In this document: positions 8,696 to 60,817 of the stretch, piece after piece
How the letters are laid out: every line of letters begins with the position of its first letter
Numbering within the stretch: the first letter of the stretch is position 1
Source: a virus
Lineage: Duplodnaviria > Heunggongvirae > Uroviricota > Caudoviricetes
DNA length: 64,000 nt
IMG/VR virus record: IMGVR_UViG_3300005512_000002
Coordinates: 129,656 to 193,655 of that record
Direction: 5' to 3' (one strand)
The notes under the pieces: model-generated
Databases searched by the model: none
Told to the model about the DNA's origin: nothing
What the model saw: only the letters and a program-made list of their open reading frames with translations
Translations under genes and position numbers: made by a program

Positions 8696-8712
8696 ACAGA
8701 AAGGAGATGCAG

Positions 8713-39600: not shown

Positions 39601-42600
39601 TCCTGGCGGTTATCGGCTGCGACAACGTCCAGCCACCCGCCCCCGGAACTTCCGGGGGCCCCGGAAGCTGACCATGCCCACCATGACCGCCCGCCAATGG
39701 CTGCAATCTGACCCTGAGATCCTGCACGTGCTGGCCAGACGGGTCGAGGAGCAATACCTGCGCCGCTTGAGTGTATCCCTGGGCGCCGAGAGTCACCCCA
39801 TGCGTGGCCTCATGCGTGGCCCTATGCGTAACGGTCGCGGCGAAGCCGCCCCGGCCCCCCGCCCCCGGACACCCCGGACACCCTGGAGAACCTACCCATG
39901 ATCTGCACCATGTGCATGCACGGTGTGACCGTCGGCTACAACGGGGCCTGGAAATGCGTGTGCGGCGAGGTGAACTGCCGGCACGCCGTGGGGATCTGCT
40001 CGCACTGCGGGCTGACCCTGCGCAAGCTCACCGAGGCCGGTATGGTGGACCGGGACGGCCACCCCCTGACCATGGCCGACATGACCGAGCCGCAGCTTGA
40101 ACTGGTCATGAAAAACCTGGCCTGCCGCACCGAAGCCGCCCTGCCACCCGGACCGAGTCCCAACGGCAAGATGCTGTTCACCCTGCTGGTGTTCGACGAG
40201 CCGCAAGGCGGCCAGTACATCGGCAACTGCGATCGAGCCAGCATCATCCAGGCCCTGCGCAACACCGCCGACCGGCTGGAAGTCAGACAGGACGTACCCC
40301 GATGACCCCCGAAAAACAGGATCGCCTCATTCAAGCCCTGACCCGGATCGCCGAGCATGAGCATCGAGCCGACCGCAGGTACCGGAACATGGTGGACGTG
40401 TCCGAATTGGACGACCTGCAGCGGATCGCCAGCAACGCCCTGGCCCAAGATACCGGCACCGAAGACGGCGACGGGCCCGTGCCCGAGACACCGCTCGAAG
40501 ACCTCCAGCGGCAACTGGCCCAGCAGAATACCAACCTCATGTGGCTGATCGACGTGATCAACGAGGCCCACGGCGCCCTGTGCCCCGAGCAGACCGGCAC
40601 CTGGCAGCAGAAGGCCATCCAGGTGCTCGAAGCCGCCCGCAGCCACGCCCAACGCCCAGCCCGTCAGGACGCACCCCTGGGTGAATGGGAAATGACCATC
40701 GACCTGGGCCCGGGCGACTTCGACCAGCAGCAGGAAAACGCCCTGTTCGAGCGGTTCAGCAGCGAGCCGGCGTGCTCCGATCCCCTGCTGTTCAGCCGTG
40801 AGGGCCGCAAGTGCATCGAGATCAGCATCCAGCACACCAACGCCGCCAGTGCCTTGACGGCGGTGCTGGCCATGCTGCACGACCTCCAGCCGGGGGTCAA
40901 CATCATGAACCTGCTGGAGATCCATGCGTTCGCCGAGCCCGAGCCGATTGCCTGGCAGGTCGGCGTCCCCCGTGAGCTTTGGGGCTTGAAGCAAGATCAG
41001 GCCCTCAAGGAGGGCTGGATGCTGTTTGGCGGCGACCTGCCCATCGACCCCATGCACATCGGGCGGGTCGAACTGCCAGCCGACAAGTCCCGCTTCCAGA
41101 CCAACGACGAAGCGTTCGGATACGTGCTGGCCCGGGCCCTGCAGGGCAGCAGACTGCACCTGCTGGCCATCTACCTGCACGGCAGAGTCACCGACCAGGA
41201 CGTGCCCGTGCCCGCATGCCTGCTGGAGAACTAATCCCATGGACGCCTACATCTACGACGCCGACCTGTACTGCGAAGACTGCATCGCCGCGATCAAAGC
41301 CAAGCTGGAAGCCGACGGTAACAAGCCCGAGAATCCCGACGACGAAATCTCTTTCGACTCGGGTGACTGGCCCAAGGGGCCCTACCCCGACGGTGGCGGT
41401 GAAGCCGACAGCTTCCAGCACTGTGCCGATTGCGGCACGTTCCTGGAGAACAGCCTGACCACCCAGGGCGTCAAGTACCATATCGCCATGCTGGGCGACT
41501 GGATACTGGACCACGACGACGGCAATGTCAAAGTCCTGGACCTGTGGTCCGAGCACCTGGGCGACTACAGCCTGGACCACGACCAGAAGGTGGTGCTCAC
41601 AGCCTTCAACCAGATCCGCAACCTGCAACTGCGACTGGCCCAGGCCAAGCCCGAGGACCAGCCGGGGCCCGTGTGGGTGATTGGCCGCAAGGACGCCAGA
41701 CACACCGGACGTGACCTGTACTGGCACACAGACGACGGCTGGGTGGACCTGAATCATGCCGAGCGGTTCACTCAGACCGAACACGACACGATGAAGATCC
41801 CCCGCCAAGGGGAGTGGTACGGCACCGACGAACTTGGCACCTGGACCGTCCCTGACTTCAAGGACTTTCTCGAAGCCCACGGCCAGCAATGGGCTGAAGT
41901 CACCGACACCGATCCTGCCCGCATAGAGCCGCCCACCGATACGGAGATCGCCCTGGTCCGACAGCGGGTGGAGCGGATGATCCGAGGCGAGCCCTATGGG
42001 TGCGAGTGCGAGGAAGGCCACAAAGAACGGGGCAACTGCTGCCGCTGGTGCTGGGACTGCCTGGCACGGATCGCCCAGGAGATCGCCGACCAGGGTCACA
42101 AGTCCTGCTATATCGCCATCCTGCCCAGCGGGCCCGAGGGCGAATACTGGCTGGAGATCGAGGTGGTGCCCCAGGACATCATCGGGGCCTGCTTCGACAC
42201 ACAGATCTACGACCTAGCCTGGGCCCGCCACTACGCCAACCTGCTGGATAAGATGCTCACCGAGGGCCACGGCATCAAGGTGTTCCAGGACCGCGAAGCA
42301 TGGGAGAACCAGCCACTGCCCGGTGACGGCTAAACCCCCACGGGTCAAACCCCGATGACCATTACCATCATGCCACCCTCCGAAACGAAAGCCCGCACGC
42401 CCCCGATGGACCTGTCCATCCGGGGTCAGGCCATGGACCTGGTGCGCGAGGCCGGCGGCGATTGGATCGCCGCCGCCGAGCAGGCCAACCACTTCCGGGG
42501 GCAGTACAAGACCTGGTGCAAGGCCAAGCACCATTGGGACGACGTGGCCAAGCTGATCCACAACTGGTGGAAGCTCAAGTACGAGGCCAGCCACCACCGC

Positions 42601-42906
42601 CGCCAGCGTCACGACCAGCGGGTGAACCAGGCCCTGGAAGTATTGCGCACCTACGCCCGCAAGCACCATCACCAGGAGGTGCTGCACCTGCTGGACGCCA
42701 TTCCCGAGCAGGTGGACCTGACCGCCCCGGCCACTGCCCGCAACAGTTTCGTGACCAACCCTGACGACCTCTTGGAGTGGGCCGACAAGGCTATTATGGC
42801 CAAGGGCAACAAAGCCTTCGAGAAAGGCGACTACGGCACCGCGAACCATTACTTCGAGCAGGCCAAGCTGCTGGAAGACGTGGCCTGCCAGATGCAAGAA
42901 TAAACC

Positions 42907-43338
42907 ATGAGCATCGCCGCACCCAAAAAGACACGCGACAACAAGACCAAGCTGGCCTTCGAGCAGTTCATGCGTGACCGGGCTGTGCCCTACGTCGAGG
43001 TGAACGAGGCCAAGCGAGCTTTGTCCGGCCCGCCCCGGCCCGGTCAGGCCATCTCGCAGACCCTGGGCGGTCTGGACTTCGTGGTGTACCTGGCGCACGG
43101 CCCCCACCTGCTGGTGTCCTGCCGCCGCCAGACCGACCAGAACAAGCAGGACATGGCCAAGTGGGGAGAAATCTTCGGCGGTAAAGACTTTCAGCCCTGC
43201 TTCGTGACCCACCGTCGCCGCGTCGGCTGGTCGTGCCACAGCCCCGCCGGCGAGGTGATGCTCCCCCTCTGGCCCGAGCCCCCGGAAGCCCCGGAAGCCC
43301 CGGAAGCCCCCTTGGGTGGCACCACAAGCATCGTGTAA
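42907..43338 (+). CDS. HYExAFE-family-like protein (degenerate)
   Basis: KLAFEQFMRDRAVPYVEVNEAKRAL...LDFVVY...LLV matches the family pattern as recalled from memory. Confidence 0.55.
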   Translation: MSIAAPKKTRDNKTKLAFEQFMRDRAVPYVEVNEAKRALSGPPRPGQAISQTLGGLDFVVYLAHGPHLLVSCRRQTDQNKQDMAKWGEIFGGKDFQPCFVTHRRRVGWSCHSPAGEVMLPLWPEPPEAPEAPEAPLGGTTSIV

Positions 43339-44247
43339 CGGCTGCGGCGAAGCCGCGCCAGAAAGCTCTACCATGACCATCAACCTCCAACCCGCAGCCA
43401 CAACCACACCGCCGCCGGTCAGCGATCAGCCCGCATGGGTACGCCTGACGCCCGTCGGTGGCCGCTACCAGGTGCCCGATGACCGGGGCCGCAAGTATTA
43501 CCTCGACGTGGACCCGACGGACTACCAGTTCGTGGTGGCCGGGGCGATCTACGGCACGCCAGGCAGCCGGTTCGACCACCCGCACGTGGCCGTGCTTCAC
43601 GACCTGGTCCACGAGTTCAAGCACTCCCGGCCCGACGGCCACAAGTGGTACACCAGCCGGCCGGGCACCGAGTTCCTGTTCGCCATCCCCCGCTATCGGG
43701 TCGAGATCCTGCTGGCCAAGGGGTACTCGTATATCAAGACCCGCATCGGTCGCGTAACCGCCGATTTCAACGTCAGTGGCGGTGGTGACGGCAGCGAGTG
43801 GTCCGACCATCTGCCCCCACTGGCCTGCATTCACGCGGACTGCTCGCGTGAGCAGCTTCTGAATCTGGCTTACGAAGCGGTGTCACCCTGGACCATCCCC
43901 GCCCCGCACAACCCCAAGTACCCGGACTGCTACCGTCACCATCTCGAACCGCTCAATCCCGAGGACGCGGCCCACTTCACCCGCCTGGCCTGCCAACAAG
44001 CCTACCAGGGCAAGCTGGAGCCCGGCCAGAAGCTATGGCTGGCCGATGGGTACAAGGTCGATGGCCAACAGGGTCCGTTCCCGGTGGTTGAGGGTGCGGC
44101 ACCCAAACGGCACTACCATCTGTGCCAGACACCCTGGGGTCTGACCAAGGCCAAGTACAATCAGATCGACTGGCTGCGCACCGCTCAGGGAAACGAGTTC
44201 GACCTGCCCCTGCCCCGCCACGTAAATCGCCTGCAGAAACCCACACC

Positions 44248-45045
44248 ATGACACCCATCCACGTCTACATCGAACCGCAGAACGAACAAACCGCCGCCGC
44301 CATGTGGCTGCACCTGGCCCAGGCCAGTGTCTCGTACTACTACATCGGCGCCGCCAGCATGGGTGTCAACGGCTTTGCCTTCAAGCCGCTGGATGCCGAC
44401 AACCGCACGGACCTGGTCAAGACCCTCACCGACTGGGGCACGCAGGCCGGCGTCACCGTCCGCATCGAGACCCCCAAAGCGGTCGGCAAGTACATCCGCA
44501 TCGAATACGACGACGATCCGCCCTGCCCGATGGACGACGACGGGCAGTGGACGTTGCACTCGTTCTGCTCGAAGCACAAGCACTACAAGGACCCCGACAC
44601 CTTGCTCCGGGACCCTTCCGGGGGTGAGGGGCTGCCTCTGGCCCTGCGCAACAAGCTCAAGGCCGGCACCGCGTTCTTCCTGAGCTATTTCGAGCACGGC
44701 CTGTGCAAATGGGGTCTGGCCGGCAGTATGGACAACACCCCGGACTTCCGGTGGGACGGCACGAGCATGGCCGGCCTGCTGGTGTGGGAGCATCCCACCA
44801 GCGACATGGGTGCCAAGACCTACGCCGACCGCCAGAAAGACGCCGCAGGCTTCCTGCGGGAGTACACCGCCTGGTGCAACGGTGAGGTGTACGGCTACGT
44901 GATCGAGGACGAAGACGGTGACACGCTGGACTCCTGCTTCGGCCACGTCGGCTCCGACGGACTGGAAGACCAGATCGCCGAACTGTTCGAGCAGTGGGGC
45001 CAGCTTGAGCCCAAAGGACATCTGGCCGAGACCTACGTCCCCTGA
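44248..45045 (+). CDS. conserved phage/mobile-element protein (YTAWCNGEVYGYVIED...DSCFG motif)
   Basis: The C-terminal motif is common in small-gene arrays of large phages; function unknown. Confidence 0.6.
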   Translation: MTPIHVYIEPQNEQTAAAMWLHLAQASVSYYYIGAASMGVNGFAFKPLDADNRTDLVKTLTDWGTQAGVTVRIETPKAVGKYIRIEYDDDPPCPMDDDGQWTLHSFCSKHKHYKDPDTLLRDPSGGEGLPLALRNKLKAGTAFFLSYFEHGLCKWGLAGSMDNTPDFRWDGTSMAGLLVWEHPTSDMGAKTYADRQKDAAGFLREYTAWCNGEVYGYVIEDEDGDTLDSCFGHVGSDGLEDQIAELFEQWGQLEPKGHLAETYVP

Positions 45046-45697
45046 CCCCCGGGATCTGACCCTCACCATGACCACCCACCAACGCCCCAACGTCAACATC
45101 GAGAGCGGCATTCCCTACGGCACGATCGACGCCCGCCACGTGCCCGGGCTGTTCGAGCAGATCCAGGCCAGCGGCACCAACGTCAGCTACCTGGCCTGGA
45201 AGCAAGGGCTCATCGAGGAACTGGCCAATATCCTGCACACCTACCACGACGGCAAGCGGGACCTGGCCGAGCAGGAACTGGCCGCCTGGCTGGGCGCCAA
45301 CTGGGACCAGACCATCGACAACGAGTTCGACAGCCGCACCCGCTGCAAGTCCAAGGCCAAGAAGATCCTGGCCGACTACGACGGCACCGAACAGACCGAG
45401 GACGACGACGCGGCGGGCATCTTCGAGGACCTGGAACTGGCCGAGCACTACGACGAGGACCAGGACACCTACACCTACCAGGAAGGCGAGGGCAAGAACC
45501 TGTGCCGGTACCAGCTTGGCTACCTGGGCGGGGCGCCCCTGATCTGGGTGATTCAGAGCCCGGTCACCACCACCTGCCGACGCTGCTCGCCCTGCGTGCC
45601 CAACGCCGGCAACCTGGACAGCCCCGACCCGGACGGTGGCATCACCTGCTACGATATCCCCCCGGACTGGAAGAATCAGGACGACGAGCATTAACCC

Positions 45698-46468
45698 ATG
45701 ACCCCACACATCAAACTCGACGACGACGTAAGAGATGTCCTGGAACGGTCCGCAATCACCGACACGCAGCTTGTGCTGCCCGATCAGCTTGAGCGCAAGC
45801 TGTACGAGCGGGTGAACAAGGTGATCGTGGCCGCCGGCGGCAAGTGGCTTCGCAAGGCCAAGGCCCATGTCTTCACCCGCGACCCGCGCCAGGTGCTGGG
45901 CCTGGCCCTGGCCAACGGCCAGATCACCGACACCAAGAAGCTGCACAACCAGTTCTTCACGCCGCCGGACCTGGCCGCCCGCATGTGCCAGATGGCCCTG
46001 GTCCGACCGGCCAAGATGGTGCTGGAACCGTCGGCGGGCGCCGGTGCCCTGGTTGACGCAGCCATCCAGGCTGGCGGGAAAGTCACTGCCATCGAGATCG
46101 ACCTGGATCTGGTGTCACGCGAACTGATCAAGTTCCCCATCGAGCACCTGGTGACGGTAGACTTCCTGGAACTGACCACCAAGCACCTGCCGGCGTTCGA
46201 CTGTGTGGTCATGAACCCGCCGTTCGCCAACAATGCGGACATCAAGCACGTCACCCACGCCTTCGAGTTCCTGCGACAGCACAGCTTTGGCCAGGGCCGA
46301 CTGGTGGCGGTGATGAGCCCGCACTTCACGTTCGCCGAGGACAAGCCCAGCAAGCAGTTCCGCAAGCTGGTCAACACCCACGGCGTCTACGAGAAGCTGC
46401 CCGAGGACACCTTCCGGGGGGCGGGCACCAGTGTCAACACCGTGCTGGTCACCCTGGAAAGAAACTGA
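45698..46468 (+). CDS. solitary SAM-dependent amino (N6-adenine) DNA methyltransferase
   Basis: Motifs FFTPPDLA, LEPSAGAG (motif I), VVMNPPF (motif IV) and FRGAGTSVNT. Confidence 0.9.
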   Translation: MTPHIKLDDDVRDVLERSAITDTQLVLPDQLERKLYERVNKVIVAAGGKWLRKAKAHVFTRDPRQVLGLALANGQITDTKKLHNQFFTPPDLAARMCQMALVRPAKMVLEPSAGAGALVDAAIQAGGKVTAIEIDLDLVSRELIKFPIEHLVTVDFLELTTKHLPAFDCVVMNPPFANNADIKHVTHAFEFLRQHSFGQGRLVAVMSPHFTFAEDKPSKQFRKLVNTHGVYEKLPEDTFRGAGTSVNTVLVTLERN

Positions 46469-47958
46469 ACCGAGCCACCCATGAAAGCCACCGTCACACT
46501 CACACTGAACGTCCCCGCCAAGACCAACGTCAAAGCGCTCAAGAAGGTCATCCGCATGATGTTCGATATCGGCAAATACGACGCGGTCCTGACACTGAAG
46601 GATCTACCCGAGCCGGATCGGGACAGCAACCCCGAGGCCCTGCTGGCCAGTGACCTCACCCTCAAGAAGGTCGATGTAAACTCGGACCTGACCGCCACCC
46701 CCCGGAAGCCCAAGTCATGAGTGAACCCATCAACACCGAGATCGAGATCGGCGGCAATCTGCCCGAAGCCCTGATTGTCCTTCTGGCCCAGGCCGCCGAG
46801 GCCGACGGGGCCAGTGGCGGCCCTGCCGGCGAGCCGGCCAAAGCCGAGAAACTGGCCCAGGACATCCGACTGCAAGACCCCCAGGCATCACTGACCCTGT
46901 ACGCCCTGAAAGCCGAGTACGGTGACCTGCCTGCGATCATCGAGTTCTGTCAGGAGCACCATCTGGCCTACCGCAAGCACGTAGAGGCCAAGGACCACTA
47001 CGAGGCCGACATCACCTGGTGGCAGCCGGGAATGCTGGAGCCTAAAACCGTCCAGGCCGACCAGAACCAGCACCCCTGCATCCGCGTGGCGGACGTGCGC
47101 GAGGTCATCGCCAAGGGCTCGAAACGGGACGTGATCAAACGCCTCACCGCCCTGCTCGACGAACACACACCCATCGAAGTCCCGCCGCTGACCCTCACGG
47201 AGTAACCCATGGCGATCGAGTTCAACAAGACACCGCGACCAGTTTCCAAGGACGCCAAACCGCAAGCGGCTTTCGGGGATTCCGGGGGTTCCGGGGGTTC
47301 CGGGGGTTGCGGGGGCGGGGGCAAGGGGCCGGCCGTGATCCAGATGGCCAGCGAGGATCAGATCGACGCGGCCATCGCCCGGCACGATCGCACCTGGCTG
47401 GCCAACCCCCAGTGGGGACCGCCCCAACGCCGACCGGACGACCCGCTGGTCCGCAGTATCTACTTCAAGCCGGGCGAAAACTTCCGGGGGCACGTGGTGG
47501 TCGAGGTGTGGCGGACCGCCGGCCCCGGCTGTGCGGACGCCGTGCTGCACTTGACACTGATAGCACCCGACGGAAACTGCTGGGGCCTGATCGGCCACGA
47601 GGCCGAACGCCTCAGCCGCGACCTGCGCGAGGGTCCCCGCCCCCGCCGCCGCCCCCGGAAGTCAAGCCCCCGGAAGCACCCCCAGAAGCAACCCCGGAAG
47701 ACCAACCCATGAAAGTCCAAATCCTCACCGTGATCGAGATCGACGTAGACCCGAAGACCAAGCCCAGCCAACTGGCCGACCACGCCCAGACCAAGCTGGA
47801 CGCCTTCCGCGAGGCGATCGGACCCAGCGAGAACTACGGCCTGTGCATCTTCCGGGCCACCGGCGACGATCTGGACCGGTTCCGGCACGATGAATGTATG
47901 GCCGTCGGGCCGCATGGTTTCATCCTGCCCCGACTGACTCCCGACTGAGCAACGAACC

Positions 47959-48816
47959 ATGACCACCCTGCACCAAGAAGCGCAAGCACAGTACGAGAAG
48001 CTGCTGGCCGTCGGCAAGCTCCTGGCCGAACGGCTCACGGGGATCACCGATCAGCCCTGGACCTGCCAGCCGCGCAAGACCGGCAACGGCGACTGCCCGC
48101 CCAACTGGCTGACCGTCAACGGACCCGACGAGCAGGTTATCGGCATCTCATTCGCCGACCGCGACGACTCGCGGCTGTGCTGCTCGGGCCACTACCCCAA
48201 CGACCCGGACGCCGGGGGTTTCAGTTGCCCGCCCAACTGGCTGACCGTCAACGGACCCGACGAGCAGGTTATCGGCATCTCATTCGCCGACCGCGACGAC
48301 TCGCGGCTGTGCTGCTCGGGCCACTACCCCAACGACCCGGACGCCGGGGGTTTCAGTGAGATCCGGCCCTGGGACTCGGAACGCCGCGAACTGGACAACC
48401 CCACCGACCGGATCACCGTGGCCGCCAGCAAGACCCCCGAGCAAATCGCCAGGGACATCGCCCACCGGCTACTGCCCGGCTACGTCAACCTGCTGGCCAA
48501 AGTCAAAGAGCGCCGCCGGCAGGTCGTCCAGTACCGCGACCGTCAGGCCGAAGCCGCCAAGCTGCTGCTGGCCGCCGCCGGCGACCTGACGGTCAACCCG
48601 TACCATCCCGAGAGTGGTGTCACCACCTTCGAGCAGCTTGACAAGCAGACACCCACCATCCACCTGTACACCCAGGCCAAGGCTGGCGGCTTCAACGGCG
48701 ACGTGAAGAACATCAACGGCAACAATTGTGACCTGGAGCTATGCGACGTGCCGCTGGACCTGGCCCAGTTCATACTCAAACTGCTGCGGGACACCAAGCG
48801 GAAAGCGAGCAAGTAA
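47959..48816 (+). CDS. hypothetical protein with an exact 44-aa internal duplication
   Basis: See the repeat at 48094-48357. Confidence 0.7.
   Translation: MTTLHQEAQAQYEKLLAVGKLLAERLTGITDQPWTCQPRKTGNGDCPPNWLTVNGPDEQVIGISFADRDDSRLCCSGHYPNDPDAGGFSCPPNWLTVNGPDEQVIGISFADRDDSRLCCSGHYPNDPDAGGFSEIRPWDSERRELDNPTDRITVAASKTPEQIARDIAHRLLPGYVNLLAKVKERRRQVVQYRDRQAEAAKLLLAAAGDLTVNPYHPESGVTTFEQLDKQTPTIHLYTQAKAGGFNGDVKNINGNNCDLELCDVPLDLAQFILKLLRDTKRKASK
48094..48357 (+). repeat. perfect 132-bp tandem duplication, in frame
   Basis: 48094-48225 is identical to 48226-48357. Confidence 0.95.
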
Positions 48817-48819
48817 CCC

Positions 48820-49188
48820 ATGCCCCCCCAAAAACCCCCGCATAACGGCCGCGGCGCAGCCGCCACCGGCCCCATCGTTCTGCCCGTCGAGCGGGTGGCC
48901 GTGCTGTCCACCGGCCACGTCACCAAGGAAGACTGCGAGAAGCTGGACCAGGACTTCCAGCGAAGCGAGCACGCCCTGATCGTCTACGTGAAAGACGAGT
49001 ATGGCTTCTGGGTGTACGTGCCCAGCGACCAGGCTGTATTCGCCGAGACCCACCAGAACGCCCAGCAAGCTGGATACAGCGAAGCCTTCCTGCACATCTT
49101 CACCCTGGCCCGCAACCAGGGCTGCATCTGGCTGATGCTGGACCGGGACGCCGAGCAGATCGACGGCCTGCCCCAGTTCGACTGGTAA
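48820..49188 (+). CDS. DUF5983-like protein
   Basis: LSTGHVT...YGFWVYV...LMLDRDA...LPQFDW pattern, recalled from memory. Confidence 0.6.
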   Translation: MPPQKPPHNGRGAAATGPIVLPVERVAVLSTGHVTKEDCEKLDQDFQRSEHALIVYVKDEYGFWVYVPSDQAVFAETHQNAQQAGYSEAFLHIFTLARNQGCIWLMLDRDAEQIDGLPQFDW

Positions 49189-49200
49189 CCCCGGCAAAGC

Positions 49201-49233
49201 ATTGCCGATTTGAGATTGCAGATTTGAGATTGG
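49201..49233 (+). repeat. AT-rich heptamer tandem repeat (GATTGCA/GATTTGA)
   Basis: ATTGCC GATTTGA GATTGCA GATTTGA GATTGG; intergenic. Confidence 0.8.
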
Positions 49234-49241
49234 AGTAACCC

Positions 49242-49559: not shown

Positions 49560-49562
49560 CCC

Positions 49563-49853: not shown

Positions 49854-51954
49854 CCCATGCCCCGCATCTGGATCTGCATCAACGCCACGCCCGAGAAGCC
49901 GGTTCCCGAGAACCCCGAGAACGACGCCCTGGACTTCTGCGCCAAGTGCTGGCCGCCGCACGAAGATGAACTGCTGGCCCTGGGCTATACCAGCTTCGTG
50001 ATCCAGCAGGCCCTGCCACCGCAGTCGGCACCCGAAGAAGCACGCGACCACCCGCCCTACGCCGAGACCAGCTACAAGTGCGAAGCCTGCGGCACCCCGC
50101 TGACCAACCAGGATGACTGACCCCATGAAAGTTGAAAACCGACCCACCGCATACGAAGTCTGGCATAACACCCAGTGCGAGCACTGCGGCGCGGACCTGA
50201 TGGAACTGCGCAGCATCCACGTGGACCTGTCCGACGGTGACAAGGTGTACGACACGGTGCACAGCCACGTCAACGCCGACGGCCAACTCGCCGACCCCAC
50301 GGATGACGAGGCCATCAACGAACAGGGCCACCACGCCGGCAGCAGGTGCGTCAACTGTGAGGAACTGCTCGAAGAACTCCAGCCCCCCACCCCGGAAGCT
50401 GAGAACGCCATGAGCCAAGCCAACCACCACCCCGAAAGCCCCGGCCCGCAGGATGAAGCTCCCGAGCCCCGCAAAGTCGAGTTCTTCCGGCTGCTGGAAG
50501 ACCACACCTGGGACACCTTCGTCGAGACCCTGCCGCCGGTCGGCGAGTTCACTAGCGACGACCCCACCTGGGACGACGTGTGCCAGGACGACTTCAACCG
50601 CTTCATGGACCAGTTCATCCACGAGAAGCTGATCGGCCAATGCCAGCACCGCAAGGCCGTCATGATGGGGGTCTACAACAGCGACCCGGAGCAGGAATAA
50701 AAAGCTCATGACCAACCCCTTCCCCTTCCAGATCGAGAGCATCGTCATCCCCGGTTTCAAGCTCCAGGCAGTAGTGGCCGCCCTGCTCGAAGCCTCCCAG
50801 TGGTTCGCCGTCATGCCCTTGCCCGACGAGGACTGGCAGATTTCCGTCAAGGTCGAGACACTGGACATGCTCAACGGCATCGTCCAGCACGTGACCGACC
50901 ACGGTACCCCGACCGAAGACCAGCCCGCGCCCGTCCGCATCGCCGTCGCCATCGAGGGCGGCCTGGTCCAGAGCATCTGCTCGGATCAGCACCAGTTGGC
51001 CGGCCAACTGGTGGACATCGCCATCGTGGACTATGATACCGACGGGGTTGAAGACGACGAAATCACCCTGGTCACCCAGGACAACGGCGACCAGGCCCGG
51101 GCCCGCGTCATCGGGTGGGGCATCGAACCGGCCGACATCAACCTGGACGAGGTATTCGGCTGAAATGGCCACCATCACCCCGAAGGTGAAGCCCATGCCC
51201 ATGTTCGACATGATGGTGAGACTGGTTCAAGCGTGGTTGCCCATGTGGAAGCATCTGCTCGATGCCTGCATGTGCTTCCACTGGCCGGTCATCGCCCACG
51301 AGGTGCTGCCCAAGCTGCAACCGGACGTGGACCTGGAACTGACCGAGTTCCGACTGCCCTACCCGGTGATCGCCGTCGAGGACCGGGGCGGGGTCACCGT
51401 GCTGGTGGACAAAACCTCGGGCCAGAAGGGCCTGCACACCCCCAGGCTCTACCTGGACTGCATCCCGCCGGCGGTGGCCCGCGACCCCCGGGCCTACGCC
51501 CAGGGCAGCTACGGCCCGCAGGAAGAAGCAGCCATGCTCCACAACCCGGTCTGCCAGTACCCGGTGGTCAACGTGGGCAGCATGGTCATCACCGGCTACC
51601 GCTATTCGGAAACCTCCGGAGAGCCATGCACCTGGATGATCGAGGGTACCATCGACCACTCCCTGGTCGGCACACCCGACCGGCTCATCATGCCACCCGA
51701 CTTTGTCCAGCGCTTCGACCAGTCCTTGCAGGACGCCACCGTGCTGACGGCCGTGCGTAACGCAGTGACCTGCATGGACAGCATCATGACCATTCCGACC
51801 CTGCCCGAGTTCGGCGTCCCGCCAGCCGGCGGTGACCCGGGCGGCTCCACTTCCGGGGGTTGGCCGCCCCCGGAACTTCACCCGCCTCCGCCGGGGCTCA
51901 GCCTGCTCAGTCACCAGCGACCCGTCTGGGAGATCCATCCGGTCACCGGACGGA

Positions 51955-52806
51955 TCACCCGCCGGCCCGCACGTCCGACGCCGACCGGGCAGATAGGTCC
52001 ACGGTCATGTTGAGGTTCATCCGCTGCTGCATCTCGACCATGATCTCGCCGGGCTCGGGCGGGGTCCCCTCCCGCAGGGCCGTCTGCACGTCATCCCAAC
52101 TGGCGTAGACCACCTCGGGGTCACCCATGCGGTAACGCTCGCCGGGTCCGGGCCGGCTGAATGGATACACCAGCCAGATGATCTCACTGTTGGCCTTGGA
52201 GTCCAACCGCCGGAACGTCGGCAGCGACGCGAAGAAGCTGGCGTCCACCGCCACGAAGAACTTCTGGCCCCAACGCCGGAAGACCGGCACCTTGAGACTA
52301 AGCTGGGGCATGAGTCTTTTCTGGGCGCTGGAACGGAAGTCGGGCCGCCGCTCGGAGCCGATCGGCACCACCCCCTGCTGCACATAGGTCTCGAAAGCAC
52401 CGCGCAACGACCGGCCCGAGAAGTACACGCTCTGCACCTCCAGGGCGGCGAAGTCGGCGATCTTCCCGGAACTGTCCCGATGGCCCACCATGTAATCGAC
52501 CTTGCCCACCCGACTGCCGCCGGCCACCTGCAAGATGCGGATCTCGGGAACCGCCACCACGTCCGAGCCGGGCCCGAACGCCAGATCGCCCACGTCCCGG
52601 AAGATGCGGTTGTCCTGCCGGAAGCGCATCGGACAGGTGACCGTCAGCGTGTTATCATGACGCAGACCGCAAATGCCCAAGGGATCGCTGGCCGATACCT
52701 TGGTACACGGCCCGCCCTGGAACGGACAGACCCCACACCCCTCGGTCGGCAGCAGACCCGCATCGACCGGAAAACCAAAGACCTCACCCATGACCATCAA
52801 CGCCAT
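51955..52806 (-). CDS. NotI-family restriction endonuclease
   Basis: EVFG..CPF..CTK...GIC...TCP.RF Cys4 domain; VDYM..DFAALEVQSVYFSG nuclease core; RPDFRSSAQKRLMPQL. Confidence 0.85.
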   Translation of the reverse strand: MALMVMGEVFGFPVDAGLLPTEGCGVCPFQGGPCTKVSASDPLGICGLRHDNTLTVTCPMRFRQDNRIFRDVGDLAFGPGSDVVAVPEIRILQVAGGSRVGKVDYMVGHRDSSGKIADFAALEVQSVYFSGRSLRGAFETYVQQGVVPIGSERRPDFRSSAQKRLMPQLSLKVPVFRRWGQKFFVAVDASFFASLPTFRRLDSKANSEIIWLVYPFSRPGPGERYRMGDPEVVYASWDDVQTALREGTPPEPGEIMVEMQQRMNLNMTVDLSARSASDVRAGG

Positions 52807-52840
52807 TTTAGAGCCCCCAAGCCATAAGAGGAACGCGAGT

Positions 52841-53689
52841 ATGCACGTCGTCAACGTCGCCAGTGTACCACAACGCAGCGTCTTCCGCTACCCCGGCGGC
52901 AAGACCTGGCTCGTGCCCCACTTCCGCCAGTGGATGGCCGGACTGGGCTTCAAGCCCAGGTTCCTGGTCGAGCCGTTCTGCGGCGGCGGGATCATCGGCC
53001 TGACGGCCCTGTTCGAGCGACTCACCACCCAGGGTGTGGTCCTGGGTGAGCTTGACCCGCACGTCAGTGCCGTGTGGCGGGTGCTGACCAACTACAGCCA
53101 GGCCACGTTCCTGGCCGTCGCGATCCTGGCCTACCCGATCAGCCGCGAGCGGGTGATCCAGGACCTCAAGCGTGAGCCGGTCGATATCGCACACCACGCT
53201 TTTCTCACCATCCTGCGCAACCGGGTACAGCGGGGTGGCATCATGAGCCCCGGTGCCAGCCTTATGCGTAACGGCGAGAACGGCAAGGGTGTGGCCAGTC
53301 GCTGGTATGCCAACACCCTGTACGAGCGGATTCTGGCCATCCGCGACCACGCGGCGGACTTGAGTTTTGTCGAGGGTGACGGCCTGGCCCTGATGCGGCG
53401 GCACCTCAAGCAGAAGCGCACCGCGTTCTTTGTTGATCCCCCCTACACCGCCGGCGGCAAGCGGGCCGGCAAGCGGCTGTACACGGTGAACAACGTGGAC
53501 CACGCCAAGCTGTTCGAGTTGGCCGCCCGGGCCGCCGGGCCGGTCATGATGACCTACGACGACGCCCCGGAAGTGCGGGCTCTGGCCCGCCGCTATAAGC
53601 TCACCGTCACCGAGATCCCCATGAAGTCCACCCACCACGCCAACATGGTCGAACTGGTCATCACCCATGCCGGGAGACTCACCCCATGA
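52841..53689 (+). CDS. Dam/D12-class N6-adenine DNA methyltransferase, likely cognate of the nuclease
   Basis: Motifs FRYPGGKTW, VEPFCGGG, FVDPPY and MMTYDD. Confidence 0.92.
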   Translation: MHVVNVASVPQRSVFRYPGGKTWLVPHFRQWMAGLGFKPRFLVEPFCGGGIIGLTALFERLTTQGVVLGELDPHVSAVWRVLTNYSQATFLAVAILAYPISRERVIQDLKREPVDIAHHAFLTILRNRVQRGGIMSPGASLMRNGENGKGVASRWYANTLYERILAIRDHAADLSFVEGDGLALMRRHLKQKRTAFFVDPPYTAGGKRAGKRLYTVNNVDHAKLFELAARAAGPVMMTYDDAPEVRALARRYKLTVTEIPMKSTHHANMVELVITHAGRLTP

Positions 53690-56600
53690 TCGAAGTTCAA
53701 ACCCAAGGCGTCAACACGCTCAGTCTTCAGGGCCGCTGCCTGATGGACACGCCGATGCACCAATCCAGCATCACCCTGCACCCGGCCGGCTGGAGCGTCC
53801 GGCTGGTGCTGGCCGGGCTGCACGATCGGCTGCAGGTGCGTGAATGTCTGGAAGCCCAGAACCTCACCCGCCTAGCAGTGTTGACCACCATCCGCCAGAT
53901 GCTCGACGAGCACGATCTGGACGAGCCGATCCATAATCTTGATCTGAACAAGTACATGGACGCCATCGAACGGATCTTCCCGGCCTACGCCCAGAACGCC
54001 CGCGTAACGGCCGCGGCACAGCCGCCGCTGGTCTCCCCGGCCCAGCCGCCGCTGGTCGTCAAGTTCGTGAAACCAACCACCCTGCGGGCGGGTGATCTGG
54101 TGGTCACCCCCGAGGGCAACCACGGCCTGGCCTTGGACACCATGGTCACGGGGTCCACGATGAAAGTCTCGGTGTTCCTGGACAACGGCCTGCAATGCCA
54201 GTATCACCTGGGCACGTTGCGACTGATCACCTTGCCGAATTCACCGGCCCCGGCCAACTTCGCCGAACTGCTGGATCAGCACAACCTGCACACCCGCTGC
54301 GGCGTGACCTACGCCGGCCAGCCCAACACCTCACAGAAGAAGAACCCCAATGACTGAGCCACAAACCCCCGCCAAGCAACCGCACTGGAGCGAGCAGGCC
54401 GTCGCCGCCCTGATCTCTCACGTCCAGGCCCACCCGCAGAAGCCCAAGGACGTGCCAGGCACGTTTCTCGGCATCGTCCGTCGGGCATGGTGCCCGGGCC
54501 AGATCGCCAAGATCGAGATCTCGGACCTGGTGTTCACCCGCACCGAGATCGTGCCGTTCCAGCCCCACGGCGAGCACCAGGGCGGCTTCGTGCTGCGCTG
54601 GGGCACCCAGGATATCGGCTTCGGCGAGATCACCTTCTTGAACCAGGCCGACAACACCGTCAAGGTCCACACCGAGTGCATGAGCCCGGCCTTCGTCCGC
54701 CGCGTTGTGGACGAACTGCTCCAGCACGCGGTGTATGATAACGAGTAACCCCATGGAAATAACCTGTGTGATCGTGCAGATCGAGAACCGGATCACCACC
54801 GTGGCCAGCTTCATCGACTCGACCCACGAAGCAGTCTACGAGCGGGGCAAGGCCCGCTACGTCAAACTGCTTGCCGCCCAGTTAGCCCGCATCGGGATCA
54901 GCCCCCGCGCGTTCATTGACCCGGACACCGACATGGCCGAGCTATTCAAGCGGACCGGCGTGGCCGTGGGCCAGTGGCACGACAAAAACTCCAAGACCCC
55001 GCACATGCGCAGCGTCATCGGGGGTACTCACGGCATGGTGCAGATCGACCTGCTGGACCCCTCGAACATCGACGTGGAAGTCAACCTGCCGGGCAACCCC
55101 CCCACCCCTTGATCCCCCGCGTAACGGCCGCGGCGCAGCCGCCGCCGATGCGGAGGCGCAAGCGAACTACAATCATGACCACCACCACCGAACAACAACA
55201 CCGCACCGAAGCCCAACTCACCAACGCCGTGCGCCTGCTGGGCGAACAACTGGCCGAGGTCGAGAAATACTTAACCGCCCTGGAGGCCACGGAAAACCCC
55301 ATCAGCTTCGACCTGCCCGACCACGGTGACATCCTCCAGGCCCTGCACCAGGCCGGCTACTGGAAGGACTTCCGCAAACCGTTCACCACCCTGCCGGGTG
55401 AGAGCTTCTGGTTCCTGCCTGATTTGTGGGTAGTGGCCCTGGACATCACCGATATCTACGGCGGGGGCGACTTGAGCGTACTGGGCCCGGGCCACGAATG
55501 GATCGAACGCATCGAGGAGGTCCGGTTCTTTGACCGCACCCAGGTCACCCACCTGTGCAGCTTCGGTGGTACCTACTGGCTGCTGCACATCGAAGACCAG
55601 GCTGTTTTCAAGCCCGGGGTGCCAGAACAGGTCAAGGACGACATCGACGTAGCCATACAGGGCCCATCCAGTCGCACGCCCGACGACTATTTCAACCAGG
55701 ACGAGATCGACGCCTTGCTTGAGGAGCACCAGAAGAACAACTCCGCCCGCGTCCACCACATCGGCCCCCCGGGGATAGACATCTCCCAGATGGACGGCGA
55801 GGCCGACTGTGACCGGTACAACACCATGATGGACGAACTGCGCCAAGCCTACCGCGAGAACCCGGTGCTATGAGCACGCCCGAACAATACCGCAAGCAAC
55901 TGAACAAGCTGCCCGACCCGAGCAAGAAAACCCTGGCCCTGGGCGCCGAGTACGCCTGCATCTTTCAGTACCTGGCCGAGAGCTACACGGACTGCCCACC
56001 GGGCGGCGAGCACGTCGAAATGACCGACATCCTCGACGAGTTCGAGGAAGTGATCCACGGCATCCGCAAGATCGCGGAACTACCCCCAAGCGATCTGGTC
56101 AAGGCCCTGCAGGTGATGGTGCTGGACAAGAAGCACCGGATGTACCTGCACATCAACGATCCCAAGGCCATGGAGCAGGTCGAGCAGGCTTTGCAAGCCG
56201 TCGGGGCCCAGCATAAGCCCGAGATCCAGAACTGTGCCATGCCCGGCATGGACCTGCGTATCCCCATCATCGCCGCCCTACAGCACGCCGCCAAGAGCTT
56301 TCACCATCCCGAGTGCGACCGGAAGTACAACGACGGCCAGCACTGCTCGTGCCACGTGGCCAAGGCCCAGCACGCCCTCGTGCTCATGGGCCTGAGAAGC
56401 GGCCCTGTTCTGGAGATGCGCGAGTCATGAGAAAGCTCACCGACCCCGAGATCCTGGCGGCCCAGAAGATCCTGCAGAAATACCTGGCCGTGCCGCCGGT
56501 CACCGAGATCGAACGGCAGGCCCACTACGTCGCCAACCGTCTGCGTGAGCCCGTGCCGTGCCCACTGTGTTCGCAGCCCTGCCCGCCCTATTTGGCCCAC

Positions 56601-59600
56601 GTGGCCTGGCAGATGGCCGATCAGCCCCTCACGCGGGACATGGTGCTCGACCAACTGACTGGTCACACGCCCGACGACGACCACACCTGCCCGCACTGCG
56701 GCGCGGGCTTGCTGCACATCCTGACCATCCAGGGCCAGCAACTCTGGAGTATCCGACCATGACCCATGCCAGCGCCATGACCGTGCCCGAACTGCTTGAC
56801 ACGCTGCTGGAGAAGCTCGCCGAATACCGCCAGGCCGGGTCCGCCGGCATCAGCTTCTCGGTGATCACCGACTACGACGACGTGGTCACCGTGGGCGACA
56901 CGGTGGACGAGCTTGTCCGCCGCACTAACCAGATCCCGCTCAAGACCCTGCTGGCCGCCAGCCACGCCGGAGACTGACCTGCATGACCGCCAAACTCCCC
57001 CAAGTCCAGACCGACACGCTCGCCCTGCTCGCCGAGCAGCTTGCCGCCGTCAAGCAGCTTCTGGAAAAGCGGGCCCAGACCCTGGCCGAGCAGGATTTAC
57101 CCCTGTCGCCCATCGAGGAACTGGGTGTGCCCAACAACCTGCGCGAAGCGAGCTTGAGACTCGGCTACGCCATCCGCTGTCTGGATCACGACGGCGAGCA
57201 CCTGGAACTCTGGGGCAACGATGGCGAGCCGGGTGCCCCGGACACCCACCCGCGTCGCGGGCCCTACGTCCCGGATGATCGGTTCCACGCCATTCCCCGC
57301 ATGCTCAACGAATGGAAGCCATGAACACCCCCGAAAACACCCCCGAACACCCCCGCGTATTATTCAAGTTCAACCACGCCAACGAGTGGCTGGAGCACAA
57401 GATCCAGGACCACGAGATGAACAAGGACCCGCGCGAGGGCCGGCAGGCCCTGGCCGGCATGCTGCGATCGGTCGCCACCATCCTCGACGGTGACCAGGTC
57501 CAGGACATCTTCCAGCAGGAGATGGACGCCGACGGCTTCTTCAACCCCACCTACGTCGATCAGTACGGTGACCAGGTGCCCAACGACCTGGTCCTGCTGC
57601 CGGACTACGACGACCTGGACGACGAGGAGGTGAAGACCGTCCTGACCGCCAACTGGTACCAGCCCGAGGGCCGGCACGGGTGCCTCATGGCCTCGGCCCG
57701 GGACCTGGGCGATCTCAGCGAACTCGATCCGGCCGACGCCGACGTGGACCTGACCCACGCCGACACCCGCATCGACCGCGTGGATAACTGCCTGAAGCGC
57801 GGCAACCCCCAAGACGGGTTCTATCACGCATGACCCGCCAACAGCACCGCCACGTGGCCGCCGGGATTCTGACCCAGACGGTCCAGCCCGAGCACTGCTG
57901 CGACAGCACGCAGACCTATGCCCGAGGGTATCTGGACGCCTGCCGCGACGCCGCAATCATCACCCTGGCCGAACACGAAGCAGCCTTGAGCTTCCTGTTC
58001 CAGGACACGGTCCCCCAACACCTCGAACACTGGTGGAAGAACACCCGATGAACACCACAACCTACTGCCGAACCGTCGGCCGGGCCATCGCCACCCTGGA
58101 CAAGGGCAGCTTCGCCCGACCCGACGAGAACAAGAACCGCGACGGCCAGGACTGGATCACCGCTCGCAACCTGCTGTTTGGGATTCTCAAGCGCAACGGC
58201 TATGAGTTCTGCCAGCCCGACAGTTCGCGCATTAAGAAAACCCGCAAGGTCCAGCCCCCGGAACCCCCGGAAGCCATCGAGCCGGGCGTCACCATCGACA
58301 TCGCCGAGCAGGTCCGCTTCCAGAGCGACATGCCCGACGTGCTGCGCCGGGTGGCCGACCTGGTGGACCAGGGCTACACCAGCGGCATCGACCCGACCTG
58401 GAGCCTCCAGGGCGAAGACGCCTTCGACCCCGCGACGGGTAAACGCTGCCTGGACTGCAACGCCCTGAACCCGCCCGAGGCCAAGACCTGCGAAGACTGC
58501 GGGTCCGAGGAGTTCGAGCACCATGACGACGACGACAGCAACCAAAGCACCTCTGATTGAACTGACCACCTGCCGCCGGCTGTTCGGTGGGCCGGGCACC
58601 CAGGAAGCGATCAACCGCCACAGCGTCCGATATTACCGCTTCAAGGGTCGCCTGCTCCACCTGGATCGCAACCTGTCCATCTCACCGCCCTGCTTCCGCC
58701 TCAGCCGCATTCCCAAACCCATGAGCCACGCGATGCAGATTGCCCAGACCGTGCAGGTCGAGGGTGCCGAATACTTTGCCAACGGCGAACCCTGGGCCCG
58801 GGCCGAACGGGCCGTCCAGCAAGCCCTGCACGCCGGCGAGATCCGACGAGACGCCAGTGGCGATGACCCGTTCATCCTCAAGGGCTGTCTGGGCTAAACT
58901 TCCGAGGTCCAGGGGCCGATACGGGTGGTATGGAACGCATCAAAGAGTTCGTCCAGGCGTGGGGGCCCACGGTGTTGTGCCTGCTGGCCTGCCTGCTGCT
59001 GGCGTATATTCTCTGGGACCAGCAGCACAGCCGGATTACGGCCCGCCAGGTGGCACCGCCACCTGGGATCAGGGGGCTGAACCCGGCCGATGCGCCGCCG
59101 AGTCTGTGCCCTCGGCACCGCTGGCTGCGACCTACGCCACAGCCGGCCGGTGACGGCGTGTGACCGAGCCAACAACTTCCCCTGGCCGGCCAGTCACCCG
59201 CCCACACGACCCCCCGACCCGCACGCCCGACCTGCACCTCCCCGCAGGCGGGCGTGCTCTATTATCTACCATGACCCGACCAAGCAAAACCCACGCCTGG
59301 GACCACGTCTGGCAGGACACTCAATCCGCCCATTGGCTCAGCCATCAGGAACCGGCCCCCAGCGACCACCACCGCGAAGTGGCCGACGCCCTGGGCCAAC
59401 TCTCGCGGCGCCAGGATCTCACCATCGAGGTCATTCACCTCGTCGGCGAGGCGGTACACTATGCCTACGAGGCCGGCCGCTTCGACGCACTGAAATAAAG
59501 GACACCAAGAACATGGACGCACAGCGCATGCTCGACCTGGATCGCATGGTCCGCCGCCTGCAGGATGCGGCGGGTGTGTTCGCCCAGACCACCAACTGTC

Positions 59601-60257
59601 TGGCCGAGATCGAAGCAATGAAGGTGGCCAACGCCGAACGGCAGGCCAACGGCCATGCCGCCGCCTACCACGAAGAATCTTTCCGGGCCCTGCCGGCCCA
59701 GTACGGCATCACGCAGGACGCCGTGCACCACTGGCTGTTCCAGGACTGACAGGAGCCGCCATGAAGATCATCGTCCGCCGCGAGCCGGCCCGGGTGCTGA
59801 TGCTGCCCTACCCCACACCCAGCGGGTTCGGCGGACCCGGGGTGGTCATCCCGGTGGCGCAATACACCTTCAGCCACGCCTACGGCTTGCAGGTCATCGT
59901 CACCCGGCCACCGTGGCACGAGATGCTGACCCTGGACGCACGCGGCGAAGTGTTCAGCCCCGACCAGATCACCGACATCCTCACCGAAATGCGCCACGCG
60001 GGGGTCGAGCCCACCGACGAGCAGGTCACCGTGCACCGCCCCGCCGGCCAGTTCGGCTGGCCCGAGCCCCCGGAGACCTAGCCCCCGGAGACCTAGCCCC
60101 ATGCGTAACGGTCGCGGTGCAGCCGCACCGGCCCCCGCCCCCGGAAGCCCAATCCGGACAGTCCGGCACCTGCCCGCTGGCCCTGTCGGGATTGAGGGGT
60201 ATAATACCTAACGGTGCATTGCTGAAAACAAAAACCCCTTTTATGCAACTGGAAGAC

Positions 60258-60815: not shown

Positions 60816-60817
60816 CC

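Follow-up and report, generated by a model that had tools for sequence, protein, structure and literature searches.

We describe a short tagged hairpin that recurs through the genome of a tailed virus (IMG/VR record IMGVR_UViG_3300005512_000002). The window analyzed here is a stretch of 64,000 nucleotides (nt), the last 64 kb of this 193,655-bp virus contig; coordinates are given either for the window or, where so stated, for the whole genome. The element is a DNA-level unit of ~30 nt that occurs alone or as an inverted heterodimer (type A, GCGTAACGG, with type B, GCTTAGCGG), lies at joints between cistrons or modules, and has one polarity. We interpret it as a phage-private insertional repeat of the repetitive extragenic palindrome (REP) class, present at 19 sites and transcribed as an intercistronic hairpin, and give this reading a probability of about one half. 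A previous sequence-only reading of the window had offered three explanations: an antitermination or processing site, an internal hairpin promoter, and a REP-like insertion. The last is the best supported of the three, given the tagged palindrome, the occurrence of solo copies and inverted dimers, the proximity to stop codons, and a 30-nt insertion relative to homologues.

The element family in the window

The window was scanned on both strands with the pattern TAACGGYYGCGGC, allowing at most one mismatch, and 100 dinucleotide-preserving shuffles served as the null. Six matches were found, all on the plus strand (39829, 43336, 48843, 54005, 55122 and 60106), compared with a shuffle mean of 0.36, and none of the 100 shuffles attained six. 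A covariance model built from the element family and rerun on the window with all filters off recovered the same six at 44.7-50.3 bits; the following match scored 17.3 bits. Both methods agree with the six co-oriented plus-strand copies of the sequence-only reading, with positions shifted by 1-2 nt. Distances between successive copies are 3507, 5507, 5162, 1117 and 4984 nt, and the loops, in order, are GAA, GAA, GCA, ACA, GCA and GCA, that is, GAA or GCA and once ACA, as had been claimed.

All six are solo type A copies on the plus strand. Copy 1 (39821-39859, 48.3 bits) has the tag GCGTAA, the lower stem CGG/CCG and the upper stem GCGGC-GAA-GCCGC; it is intercistronic, 158 nt past the stop of the open reading frame (ORF) 39231-39671 and 47 nt ahead of the ATG at 39898. 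Copy 2 (43328-43366, 44.7 bits) supplies a stop codon, an earlier observation that holds: its TAA (43336-43338) ends ORF 42907-43338, and the hairpin ends 15 nt ahead of the ATG at 43373. Copy 3 (48835-48873, 45.1 bits) contains a CCGCGG site and lies 29 nt past the stop of ORF 47959-48816. Because the DUF5983 match of the following gene begins only at residue 27, this copy is probably located in the 5′ untranslated region (UTR) of that gene, whose likely start is a GTG at approximately +52/+58. Copy 4 (53997-54035, 50.3 bits), also with a CCGCGG site, is translated as the in-frame peptide RVTAAAQPPL in ORF 53686-54357. Copy 5 (55114-55152, 49.4 bits) is intercistronic and again contains CCGCGG; the upstream ORF ends with a TGA 12 nt before the TAA, in the same frame, and the next ATG is at +53. 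Copy 6 (60098-60136, 48.5 bits) has the upper stem GCGGT/GCCGC, with a T.G pair, and a covarying lower stem, CGGT/ACCG. It is found past the stop of ORF 59761-60081. The sequence that follows the copy is unusually rich in A and T over 60190-60270, includes a perfect TATAAT (~60200), lacks a good -35, and leads into a coiled-coil gene (~60258/60264-60815). Copies had been placed both between and inside ORFs, in different frames. Both kinds occur and the frames do differ, but the copy at 54005 is at a module joint and the 48843 copy probably belongs to a 5′ UTR.

Two further details of the sequence-only reading also hold. Copies 1 and 6 have ~48 nt in common (~50 bp had been given), extending into GCCCCCGGA, and each is preceded by a tandem duplication on the plus strand. 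CATGCGTGGCC x2 (39799-39821) abuts copy 1, its unit repeating the element's own 5′ end, (C)ATGCGT, and GCCCCCGGAGACCTA x2 (60066-60095) abuts copy 6, with a CCCCGGA motif in each unit. In addition, a 15-nt direct duplication, CAGCCGCCGCTGGTC (54019-54057, as 54019-54033 and 54043-54057, plus strand), comprises the 3′ arm of copy 4 plus flank. Across the genome, local direct repeats of at least 11 nt were present beside 5 of the 19 copies (window 39799-39821, 43281-43309, 54019-54057 and 60066-60095; genome 14766-14785) versus 4.8% of control windows, an enrichment that suggests slippage-prone joints.

Structure of the element

With the T of TAACGG as reference, conserved positions extend from -3 to +25; none was found from -60 to -4 or past +25. 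In the element, a single-stranded GCGTAA tag is followed by a 3-4 bp lower stem (CGGC/GCCG), which a bulge or 1x1 loop separates from the 5-bp upper stem and its loop. A conserved leader, (C)GTAACGG, followed by a stem had been described; the leader is indeed conserved, but its CGG(C) part is the 5′ arm of the lower stem. The 5-bp upper stem is present in all 19 copies, the loop is 3 nt long in 16 of them and 4 nt in the others, and all 19 loops end in A.

Pairing of the upper stem is strongly maintained. In an alignment of 18 sequences, 88 of 90 upper-stem cells are paired, with double changes at two adjacent pairs, and sliding the 3′ partner by 1-3 columns left only 26-50% of cells paired. 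Over 95 upper-stem cells, 92 are Watson-Crick and 2 are GT pairs. Upper-stem variants are GCGGC/GCCGC (12 copies), GCACC/GGTGC (5), GCGCC/GGCGC (1) and GCGGT/GCCGC (1), and one partner copy has GCAGC/GCTGC; the lower stem varies as GGG/CCC and CGGT/ACCG. The polarity of the element is given solely by its one-sided tag, and the fold may be that of the RNA, of either strand of the DNA, or of a cruciform. No target-site duplications flanking the element were found.

Several candidate explanations were rejected. A CRISPR-repeat mimic was ruled out by the absence of a conserved 3′ handle, and a repeat at the peptide level by reading frames that differ among copies. The use of G.T wobbles as a mark of sense-strand folding was dropped in view of a symmetric count and equal folding energies.

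Genome-wide census, polarity and distribution

Extending the model scan to the rest of the contig, as the sequence-only reading had proposed, showed that orientation is not random. The covariance model detected 19 sense-strand copies in the whole genome (29.8-50.4 bits). Six antisense matches scored at least 21 bits, each beside or overlapping a sense copy, and three weaker antisense matches were located likewise. The sites comprise 10 solo copies, among them all six of the window, and nine copies paired with an antisense partner, all outside the window. Partners are inverted and degenerate, and five carry the variant type B tag, distinguished from type A by two positions. Solo copies are in sense orientation without exception (10/10, p=1e-3), and the sole or stronger copy is on the sense strand at 18 of the 19 sites (p=3.8e-5). 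The only exception to this polarity is flanked by genes for an HNH endonuclease and tRNA-Pro (genome 88914-88970); it is a near-perfect palindrome of 57 nt, composed of two type A copies (GCGTAACGGC...GCCGTTACGC), with an RNA fold of -47.7 kcal/mol, and contains AscI and BssHII words.

Genes in this genome are arranged in five strand blocks, and the element is restricted to a subset of them. Seventeen copies occur in the early plus-strand block and the replication/recombination minus-strand block, two in the tRNA region, and none in the 94.9 kb of late and nucleotide-metabolism blocks (p=3e-6 by length, 8e-4 by non-coding bases, 9e-5 by gaps of at least 40 nt). Approximately 11-13 of the 19 copies are intercistronic and four lie within continuous reading frames, the remainder being ambiguous. 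Eight begin no more than 45 nt past a same-strand stop codon (nine if the copy at 184777 is included), compared with 2.3 of 13 for random intergenic positions, and the distance from the hairpin end to the next start is 15-85 nt. The initial 13 kb of the plus-strand block has no copy, and block starts lack the element, which argues against its being a primary promoter. The idea that the TAA of the tag is a programmed in-frame stop was also rejected: it is in frame with the upstream ORF at ~4 of 13 sites, near the chance value of 1 in 3.

Copies inside reading frames and module joints

The four in-ORF copies are read in one shared frame and encode R(V/A)(T/A)AAAQPP(V/L), or RVTAAPPDAP in the decayed copy 4899, within Pro/Ala-rich segments. 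One of them is in a Rad52-like protein (genome 17472-18233, minus strand), where the element-encoded peptide is RAAAAAQPPV. When this protein was aligned with two homologues (43-45% identity) that match on both flanks, the sole internal multi-residue gap was 10 amino acids at the element peptide, equivalent to 30 nt, the size of the element's conserved core. A third homologue has the N-terminal domain only and ends just short of the element point.

The second comparable case is the 223-residue ORF that reads through copy 4 (window 53686-54357, plus strand). Residues 1 to ~103 match stand-alone proteins of 96-106 residues, and residues ~126-210 match stand-alone proteins of 75-82 residues; in an exhaustive search, copy 4 plus the 15-nt duplication of its 3′ arm fell between the two modules. 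Together, the gap in the Rad52-like protein and the two-family match at 54005 place both homologue-comparable in-ORF copies at joints of independently occurring modules. For the in-ORF copy 4899, a homologue search of the phage collection only gave no match, and for copy 44820 there was no match in a protein search or in the phage collection.

Avoidance of restriction words

Avoidance of palindromic hexamers in this genome is extreme. Among the 48 with a Markov expectation of at least 5, 19 fall short by more than 5-fold and 14, each expected 6-94 times, do not occur at all; depletion as strong as that of the 19 is seen in 11 of 3583 non-palindromes. The purged words include AAGCTT (0 observed, 94 expected), GTCGAC (0/93) and CTCGAG (0/86), and GGATCC, ATCGAT and CAGCTG are also absent from the genome. 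Depleted non-palindromes include CTCTTC/GAAGAG and CAGCTC/GAGCTG, and CTAG was observed 23 times versus 165 expected.

CCGCGG was observed six times versus 114 by Markov expectation, and all six sites (window 48849, 54011 and 55128; genome 14806, 44809 and 95004) are inside hairpin elements, which make up 0.49% of the genome. In the remaining copies the two spacer bases are TC, CT, CA or GC; since these bases vary among copies, CCGCGG is not required by the element. Either the CCGCGG copies are young or gene conversion has kept them alike, or the site is protected there, for example through hairpin extrusion or protein binding.

Restriction genes were also seen in the window. A NotI-family endonuclease (PF12183, E=2.8e-43; window 51955-52854, minus strand) is antisense inside the plus-strand array, and its ORF overlaps the 5′ end of an opposite-strand D12-class/PHROG-56 DNA methyltransferase (window 52673-53689, plus strand); the two are likely a restriction-modification pair. 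GCGGCCGC occurs 12 times versus 25 expected, with two occurrences within elements.

The CCCGGAA motif

A second motif, CCCGGAA (CCCCGGAA(G)), occurs 193 times, with copies on both strands and in all blocks that often form 9-nt tandem repeats (for example, window 43280-43306, 47653-47700 and 49528-49560). A link between the hairpin element and CCCCGGAA had been drawn from copies 1 and 6. This association is real, with CCCGGAA no more than 80 nt from 8 of 19 element copies compared with a chance coverage of 12.9% of bases, although the motif is otherwise broader than, and separate from, the hairpin element. An ATG-initiated ORF of at least 60 codons starts within 30 nt of 26 of 109 sense copies of the motif versus 2 of 84 antisense copies, and the motif may be start-associated or translation-related. 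An extracytoplasmic function (ECF) promoter with CCCGGAA as its -35 was ruled out by variable spacing to the element.

Searches for signals, enzymes and relatives

Searches for -35/-10 signals showed no conserved position from -60 to -4, no preferred AAC spacing and no -35-type partner at fixed spacing. A consensus promoter scan of window 38000-57900 gave 3 sites versus 1.9 expected, none at a copy, and intrinsic terminators in the same interval numbered 13 versus 14.0 expected, none coincident with a copy on the sense strand. One minus-strand terminator-like site overlaps the leader of copy 3. No T run follows the copies. Rfam returned no match in the window at gathering score and none at E<=1 in window 59900-60900.

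The phage sigma factor assumed in the sequence-only reading does exist, as a divergent two-domain ECF-like ORF near the upstream end of the late block (window 21055-21732, minus strand; TIGR02937 E=5.8e-9, under the curated cut-off; Sigma70_r2 22-24 bits). Pfam, PHROGs and PDB sequence searches yielded no RNA polymerase of the N4, T7 or crAss type, and no DxDGD context was seen; in the PF00940 six-frame search the controls were silent. A transposase was likewise not matched in Pfam scans of ~190 ORFs, and no PF00589 integrase match was present in the genome (controls detected in 14/14 genomes).

Host and relative scans used an exact 22-nt pattern. IMG/VR gave 3 single matches (a looser pattern raised this to 12, most of which have broken stems) and no multi-copy record. 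Among 185,579 species genomes there were 75 single matches in 75 contigs, and among 241 million metagenome records 89 single matches in 89 contigs; no contig in either set had more than one. When outside matches were rescored with the model, one was in the family range (L139, 40 bits), in unrelated DNA of 56% GC, and the L021 contig had no element family. The supposed resemblance to REPs of Planctomycetes/Acidobacteria was not borne out, as these single scattered matches (75 and 89) are all that was seen in cellular genomes and metagenomes. A passenger derived from a host REP was rejected, given that no multi-copy record occurs in IMG/VR, species genomes or metagenome contigs. Single-protein locus searches found no relatives; an alignment-based search yielded one relative (36% helicase identity), with no copies and no analogous family. 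Three helicases are closer (44-48% identity), the longest contigs that encode them measuring 131.6, 19.0 and 189.6 kb. Within the collections searched, the family is private to this 193.7-kb phage, and its host may be unsampled. A full-text literature search for REP-like families in phage genomes returned nothing pertinent, and such a search cannot prove absence in print.

Genome content

The genome is 65% G+C and an estimated 97% complete. It encodes structural proteins (head, portal, terminase, and a 5162-residue protein with a tape-measure domain), a replisome (split PolIII alpha, DnaB-like helicase, primase and single-stranded DNA-binding protein), RecA, RecT/RecE, a Rad52-like protein, RuvC and ribonucleotide reductase, as well as several DNA methyltransferases, the NotI-family nuclease, ParA with a replication initiator, and 36 tRNA genes. 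The terminase is no more than ~26% identical to that of any cultured phage. The mRNA-sense strand is C-rich and G-poor, with a GC skew of ~-0.1.

The replication-initiator-like helix-turn-helix protein (window 6981-7961, minus strand) and ParA (window 8542-9660, plus strand), in a genome with no integrase, suggest a phage-plasmid life style. The 36-tRNA cluster (genome 82.5-93.1 kb, minus strand) has small ORFs between its genes (HNH, MerR-like, SNase-like). Three giant ORFs are all on the minus strand: genome 73991-82141 (2716 residues), 64714-69909 (1731 residues) and 100394-115882 (5162 residues). Neither the 2716- nor the 1731-residue ORF had a family, PDB-sequence (E<=1), atlas or motif match. 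A MazZ-like dATP/dGTP diphosphohydrolase N-terminal domain (PF18909, E=2e-19; genome 38149-38865, minus strand) is encoded directly downstream of an element copy, and nothing of the remaining Z-base pathway was seen in Pfam scans.

Interpretation and alternatives

Because all copies are transcribed in a long co-directional operon, the hairpin is most likely an intercistronic RNA structure, a role also suggested for REPs, and the element is likely neither a promoter nor a dedicated nut site. If it is a REP-class repeat, copies would spread inside the genome by strand-specific insertion of single strands, like REP/IS200-type elements, or alternatively by short-homology recombination among copies through the RecT/RecE, Rad52-like and RecA proteins of the phage. 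Such spread would have to be recent or frequent enough to keep the CCGCGG word that is purged elsewhere. Once transcribed, the hairpin might shield the 3′ end of the upstream cistron or damp read-through, thereby segmenting the ~30-kb array.

Several observations weigh against this interpretation. With respect to the REP class, the element resides in a phage, at only 19 sites, and such a low copy number is accompanied by its absence from every cellular genome and other virus searched (no matching family in the 185,579 genomes), leaving a host REP source unsupported. Its tag is GCGTAA, of which the GTAA part is found in 13 of 19 copies, the others reading GTAG (3), GTCA (2) or ATAA (1), with GCAG in two further copies, and the canonical REP tag is GTAG or CGTC. 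The check for a REP-associated tyrosine transposase (RAYT/TnpA) gene proposed in the sequence-only reading had a negative outcome: no RAYT/Y1 transposase was found with PF01797 in a six-frame search of the whole phage at E<=1, in which controls were detected in 10/14 genomes. With no RAYT and no integrase, no mobilizing enzyme was identified. The near-absolute polarity, the confinement to early, replication and tRNA regions, and the position of the element as sole carrier of the purged CCGCGG also depart from REPs; polarity and early/replication restriction would be predicted of a functional transcript signal and not obviously of a selfish repeat. The structural and comparative data call for caution as well. 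The GCACC/GGTGC copies may have descended from a single ancestor or event, in which case independent compensatory events are few. By symmetric count there are 4 G.T and 3 A.C pairs, and the sense fold is the more stable in 9 of 19 copies, so that the folding strand is not indicated. The 10-residue gap is located in a variable linker, the proteins being only 43-45% identical, and is possibly an ordinary indel, and the homologue matches of ORF 53686-54357 are weak (E 4e-6 to 9e-4), though consistent. Finally, the proposed role in RNA is an inference.

Alternatively, the element could be a dedicated RNA cis-element to which a factor of the phage or the host binds in the style of lambda boxA/boxB and N, a site cut by a processing nuclease, or a protective hairpin at 5′ ends. 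It would keep RNA polymerase reading, or cut and stabilize segments of, the long early and replication transcripts. Such a role accommodates the sense orientation at 18/19 sites, the limitation to early, replication and tRNA blocks, the intercistronic positions 15-85 nt ahead of the next start, the conserved single-stranded tag beside a hairpin conserved in structure, and the absence of canonical promoters and terminators within the array. Moreover, C-rich, G-poor transcripts favour Rho loading, and a need for antitermination is plausible given that the mRNA-sense strand has this composition. However, an RNA site does not need the antisense partner found at nine sites, one copy inserts 30 nt into the linker of a protein and a second is translated through, and the initial 13 kb of the plus-strand block has no copy. 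The number of sites, 19, is far above that of nut/put sites, of which there are one or two per operon; the loop is a triloop rather than a GNRA-like pentaloop, with no Rfam match; and why a dispensable spacer should keep the purged CCGCGG is left unexplained. We therefore consider this role unlikely. The nut/put-like antitermination or processing site of the sequence-only reading received no positive support, the inverted partners, in-ORF insertion and retained CCGCGG being unlike a dedicated RNA site.

A signal acting in single-stranded DNA would be an N4-type promoter for a virion polymerase, a priming site like the G4 origin or ssiA of RSF1010, where the primase binds a 5′ tail and hairpin, or a strand-specific nick site. 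The phage encodes a primase and a helicase, its 2716- and 1731-residue ORFs are without assignment, and the inverted pairs of the element on opposite strands recall ssiA/ssiB. Hairpin extrusion would destroy the CCGCGG duplex site, which could explain the tolerance of six such sites. The dimensions also fit, with a 5-bp stem, a 3-nt loop in 16/19 and a last loop base A in 19/19, and a manual count gave GCGNAGC in 4 copies and CCGCAGG in 3. In a review, GCGNAGC-type mini-hairpins are described as unusually stable, mini-hairpin motifs are noted at the G4 origin, ssiA (whose own motif is CCGAAGG) and N4 early promoters, and RepB′ is described as contacting a 6-nt 5′ tail plus hairpin (PMC13037366), which is the tail-plus-hairpin architecture seen here. 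Nevertheless, the gene-proximal side of the hairpin lacks conservation, unlike N4 (-17 to +1), the template-strand base at the loop centre is G or T rather than uniformly purine, no N4/T7/crAss-type polymerase was found, and priming or nick sites would be expected in late blocks as well, with block starts lacking the element. We judge such a signal to be improbable. For the internal hairpin promoter of the sequence-only reading, this means that the stem and loop sizes agree with the N4 type, but nothing is conserved between hairpin and start and an N4-like polymerase was not found.

A more speculative proposal, to which we attach rather little weight, is that the element is a working site of gene-module exchange. 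The 30-nt tagged hairpin would extrude and hide CCGCGG from restriction, and a phage enzyme, or RecT/Rad52, would use it in one polarity to insert, fuse or shuffle early anti-defence and replication modules, in an integron-like manner with no integrase. In the comparison with integron attC sites, which are 57-141 nt long, end in inverse-core and core (GTTRRRY) sequences and go with an integron integrase, the integrase was absent and complementary ends were found only in the composite at 88.9 kb.

The weakest alternative, which we regard as very improbable, is a duplex operator for an elongation-blocking repressor, in the style of the L5 stoperators or of the dispersed C1 operators of P1, that silences early and replication operons in a plasmid prophage. 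ParA and an initiator without integrase would suit a plasmid prophage, and asymmetric, multi-copy sites in short intergenic spaces, oriented with transcription, correspond to the published stoperator pattern (PMC9283540). It is opposed by both stem arms changing together (GCGGC/GCCGC, GCACC/GGTGC, GCGCC/GGCGC), which indicates that the hairpin and not a base-specific duplex site is preserved, by bulges and lower-stem covariation that point to a folded form, by the lack of copies in the late operons (0 in 94.9 kb), which silencing would also need, and by the failure to identify a cognate repressor in family scans, no search having been aimed at repressors.

Comparison with known systems

Returning to the REP-class interpretation, a survey of REPs (PMC3733652) describes a tetranucleotide tag (GTAG or CGTC) at one end of an imperfect palindrome of 20-40 bp. 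In the same survey, REPs occur as singletons and as head-to-head or tail-to-tail homo- and heterodimers, their termini can supply stop codons, intragenic copies are frequent in replication/repair proteins, and one tagged superfamily is without a dedicated transposase (PMC3733652). Measured against this account, the element is similar in its one-sided tag, complementary variable stems, solo copies and inverted dimers, location close to an upstream ORF's 3′ end with a varying gap to the following ORF, supply of stop codons and lack of target-site duplication. Some of its copies are also in ORFs, including that of a replication/repair protein. The departures from REPs are those weighed above.

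Promoter early stem-loops (PeSLs) of T4-type phages combine a strong sigma-70 promoter with a stem-loop in ~100 bp (PMC2839356; PMC4122927). With these the element shares a co-oriented stem-loop motif between small early genes of unknown function in plastic regions, at module boundaries, in a large phage with efficient short-homology recombination; unlike them, it is ~30 nt long and has no -35/-10.

N4 promoters are conserved from -17 to +1, up to the start site, form their hairpin on the template strand with a central G in the loop, number three at one end of the genome, and need a virion RNA polymerase of ~3500 residues (PMC4496689). Relative to these traits, the element is comparable in its GC-rich hairpin with a 5-7 bp stem, 3-nt loop and adjacent conserved bases, some stem bases being free to vary if paired. 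However, its conserved flank is on the gene-distal side, and the other traits of N4 are not shared.

In Cluster A mycobacteriophages, stoperators are hairpin-free duplex sites of 13 bp that bind a monomeric repressor (PMC9283540). On that description, the element is like them in the number of asymmetric sites (some twenty or more; 19 for the element), the short intergenic spaces, and the orientation with transcription, and unlike them in that paired stem changes, bulges and inverted partners indicate a folded form.

The lambda nut (boxA plus boxB) and HK022 put sites occur once per operon, have a pentaloop, and act through the N protein or through direct binding of RNA polymerase. Here too, a single-stranded box is followed by a hairpin with a 5-bp stem in the sense early transcript; in contrast, the element has 19 sites, a triloop, opposite-strand partners and copies inside ORFs.

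REP-class repeats are usually seen as features of bacterial chromosomes tied to a domesticated transposase, and the family described here is viral, with no transposase found. If its copies are insertional, they show a route by which small early genes, the source pool of anti-defence functions, can come to be fused, split and re-sorted in a large phage. If they act in the transcript, they represent a new intercistronic signal for long operons read by host polymerase in a GC-rich phage. In addition, the survival of CCGCGG only within the element provides a handle on small-hairpin extrusion in vivo and on escape from restriction.

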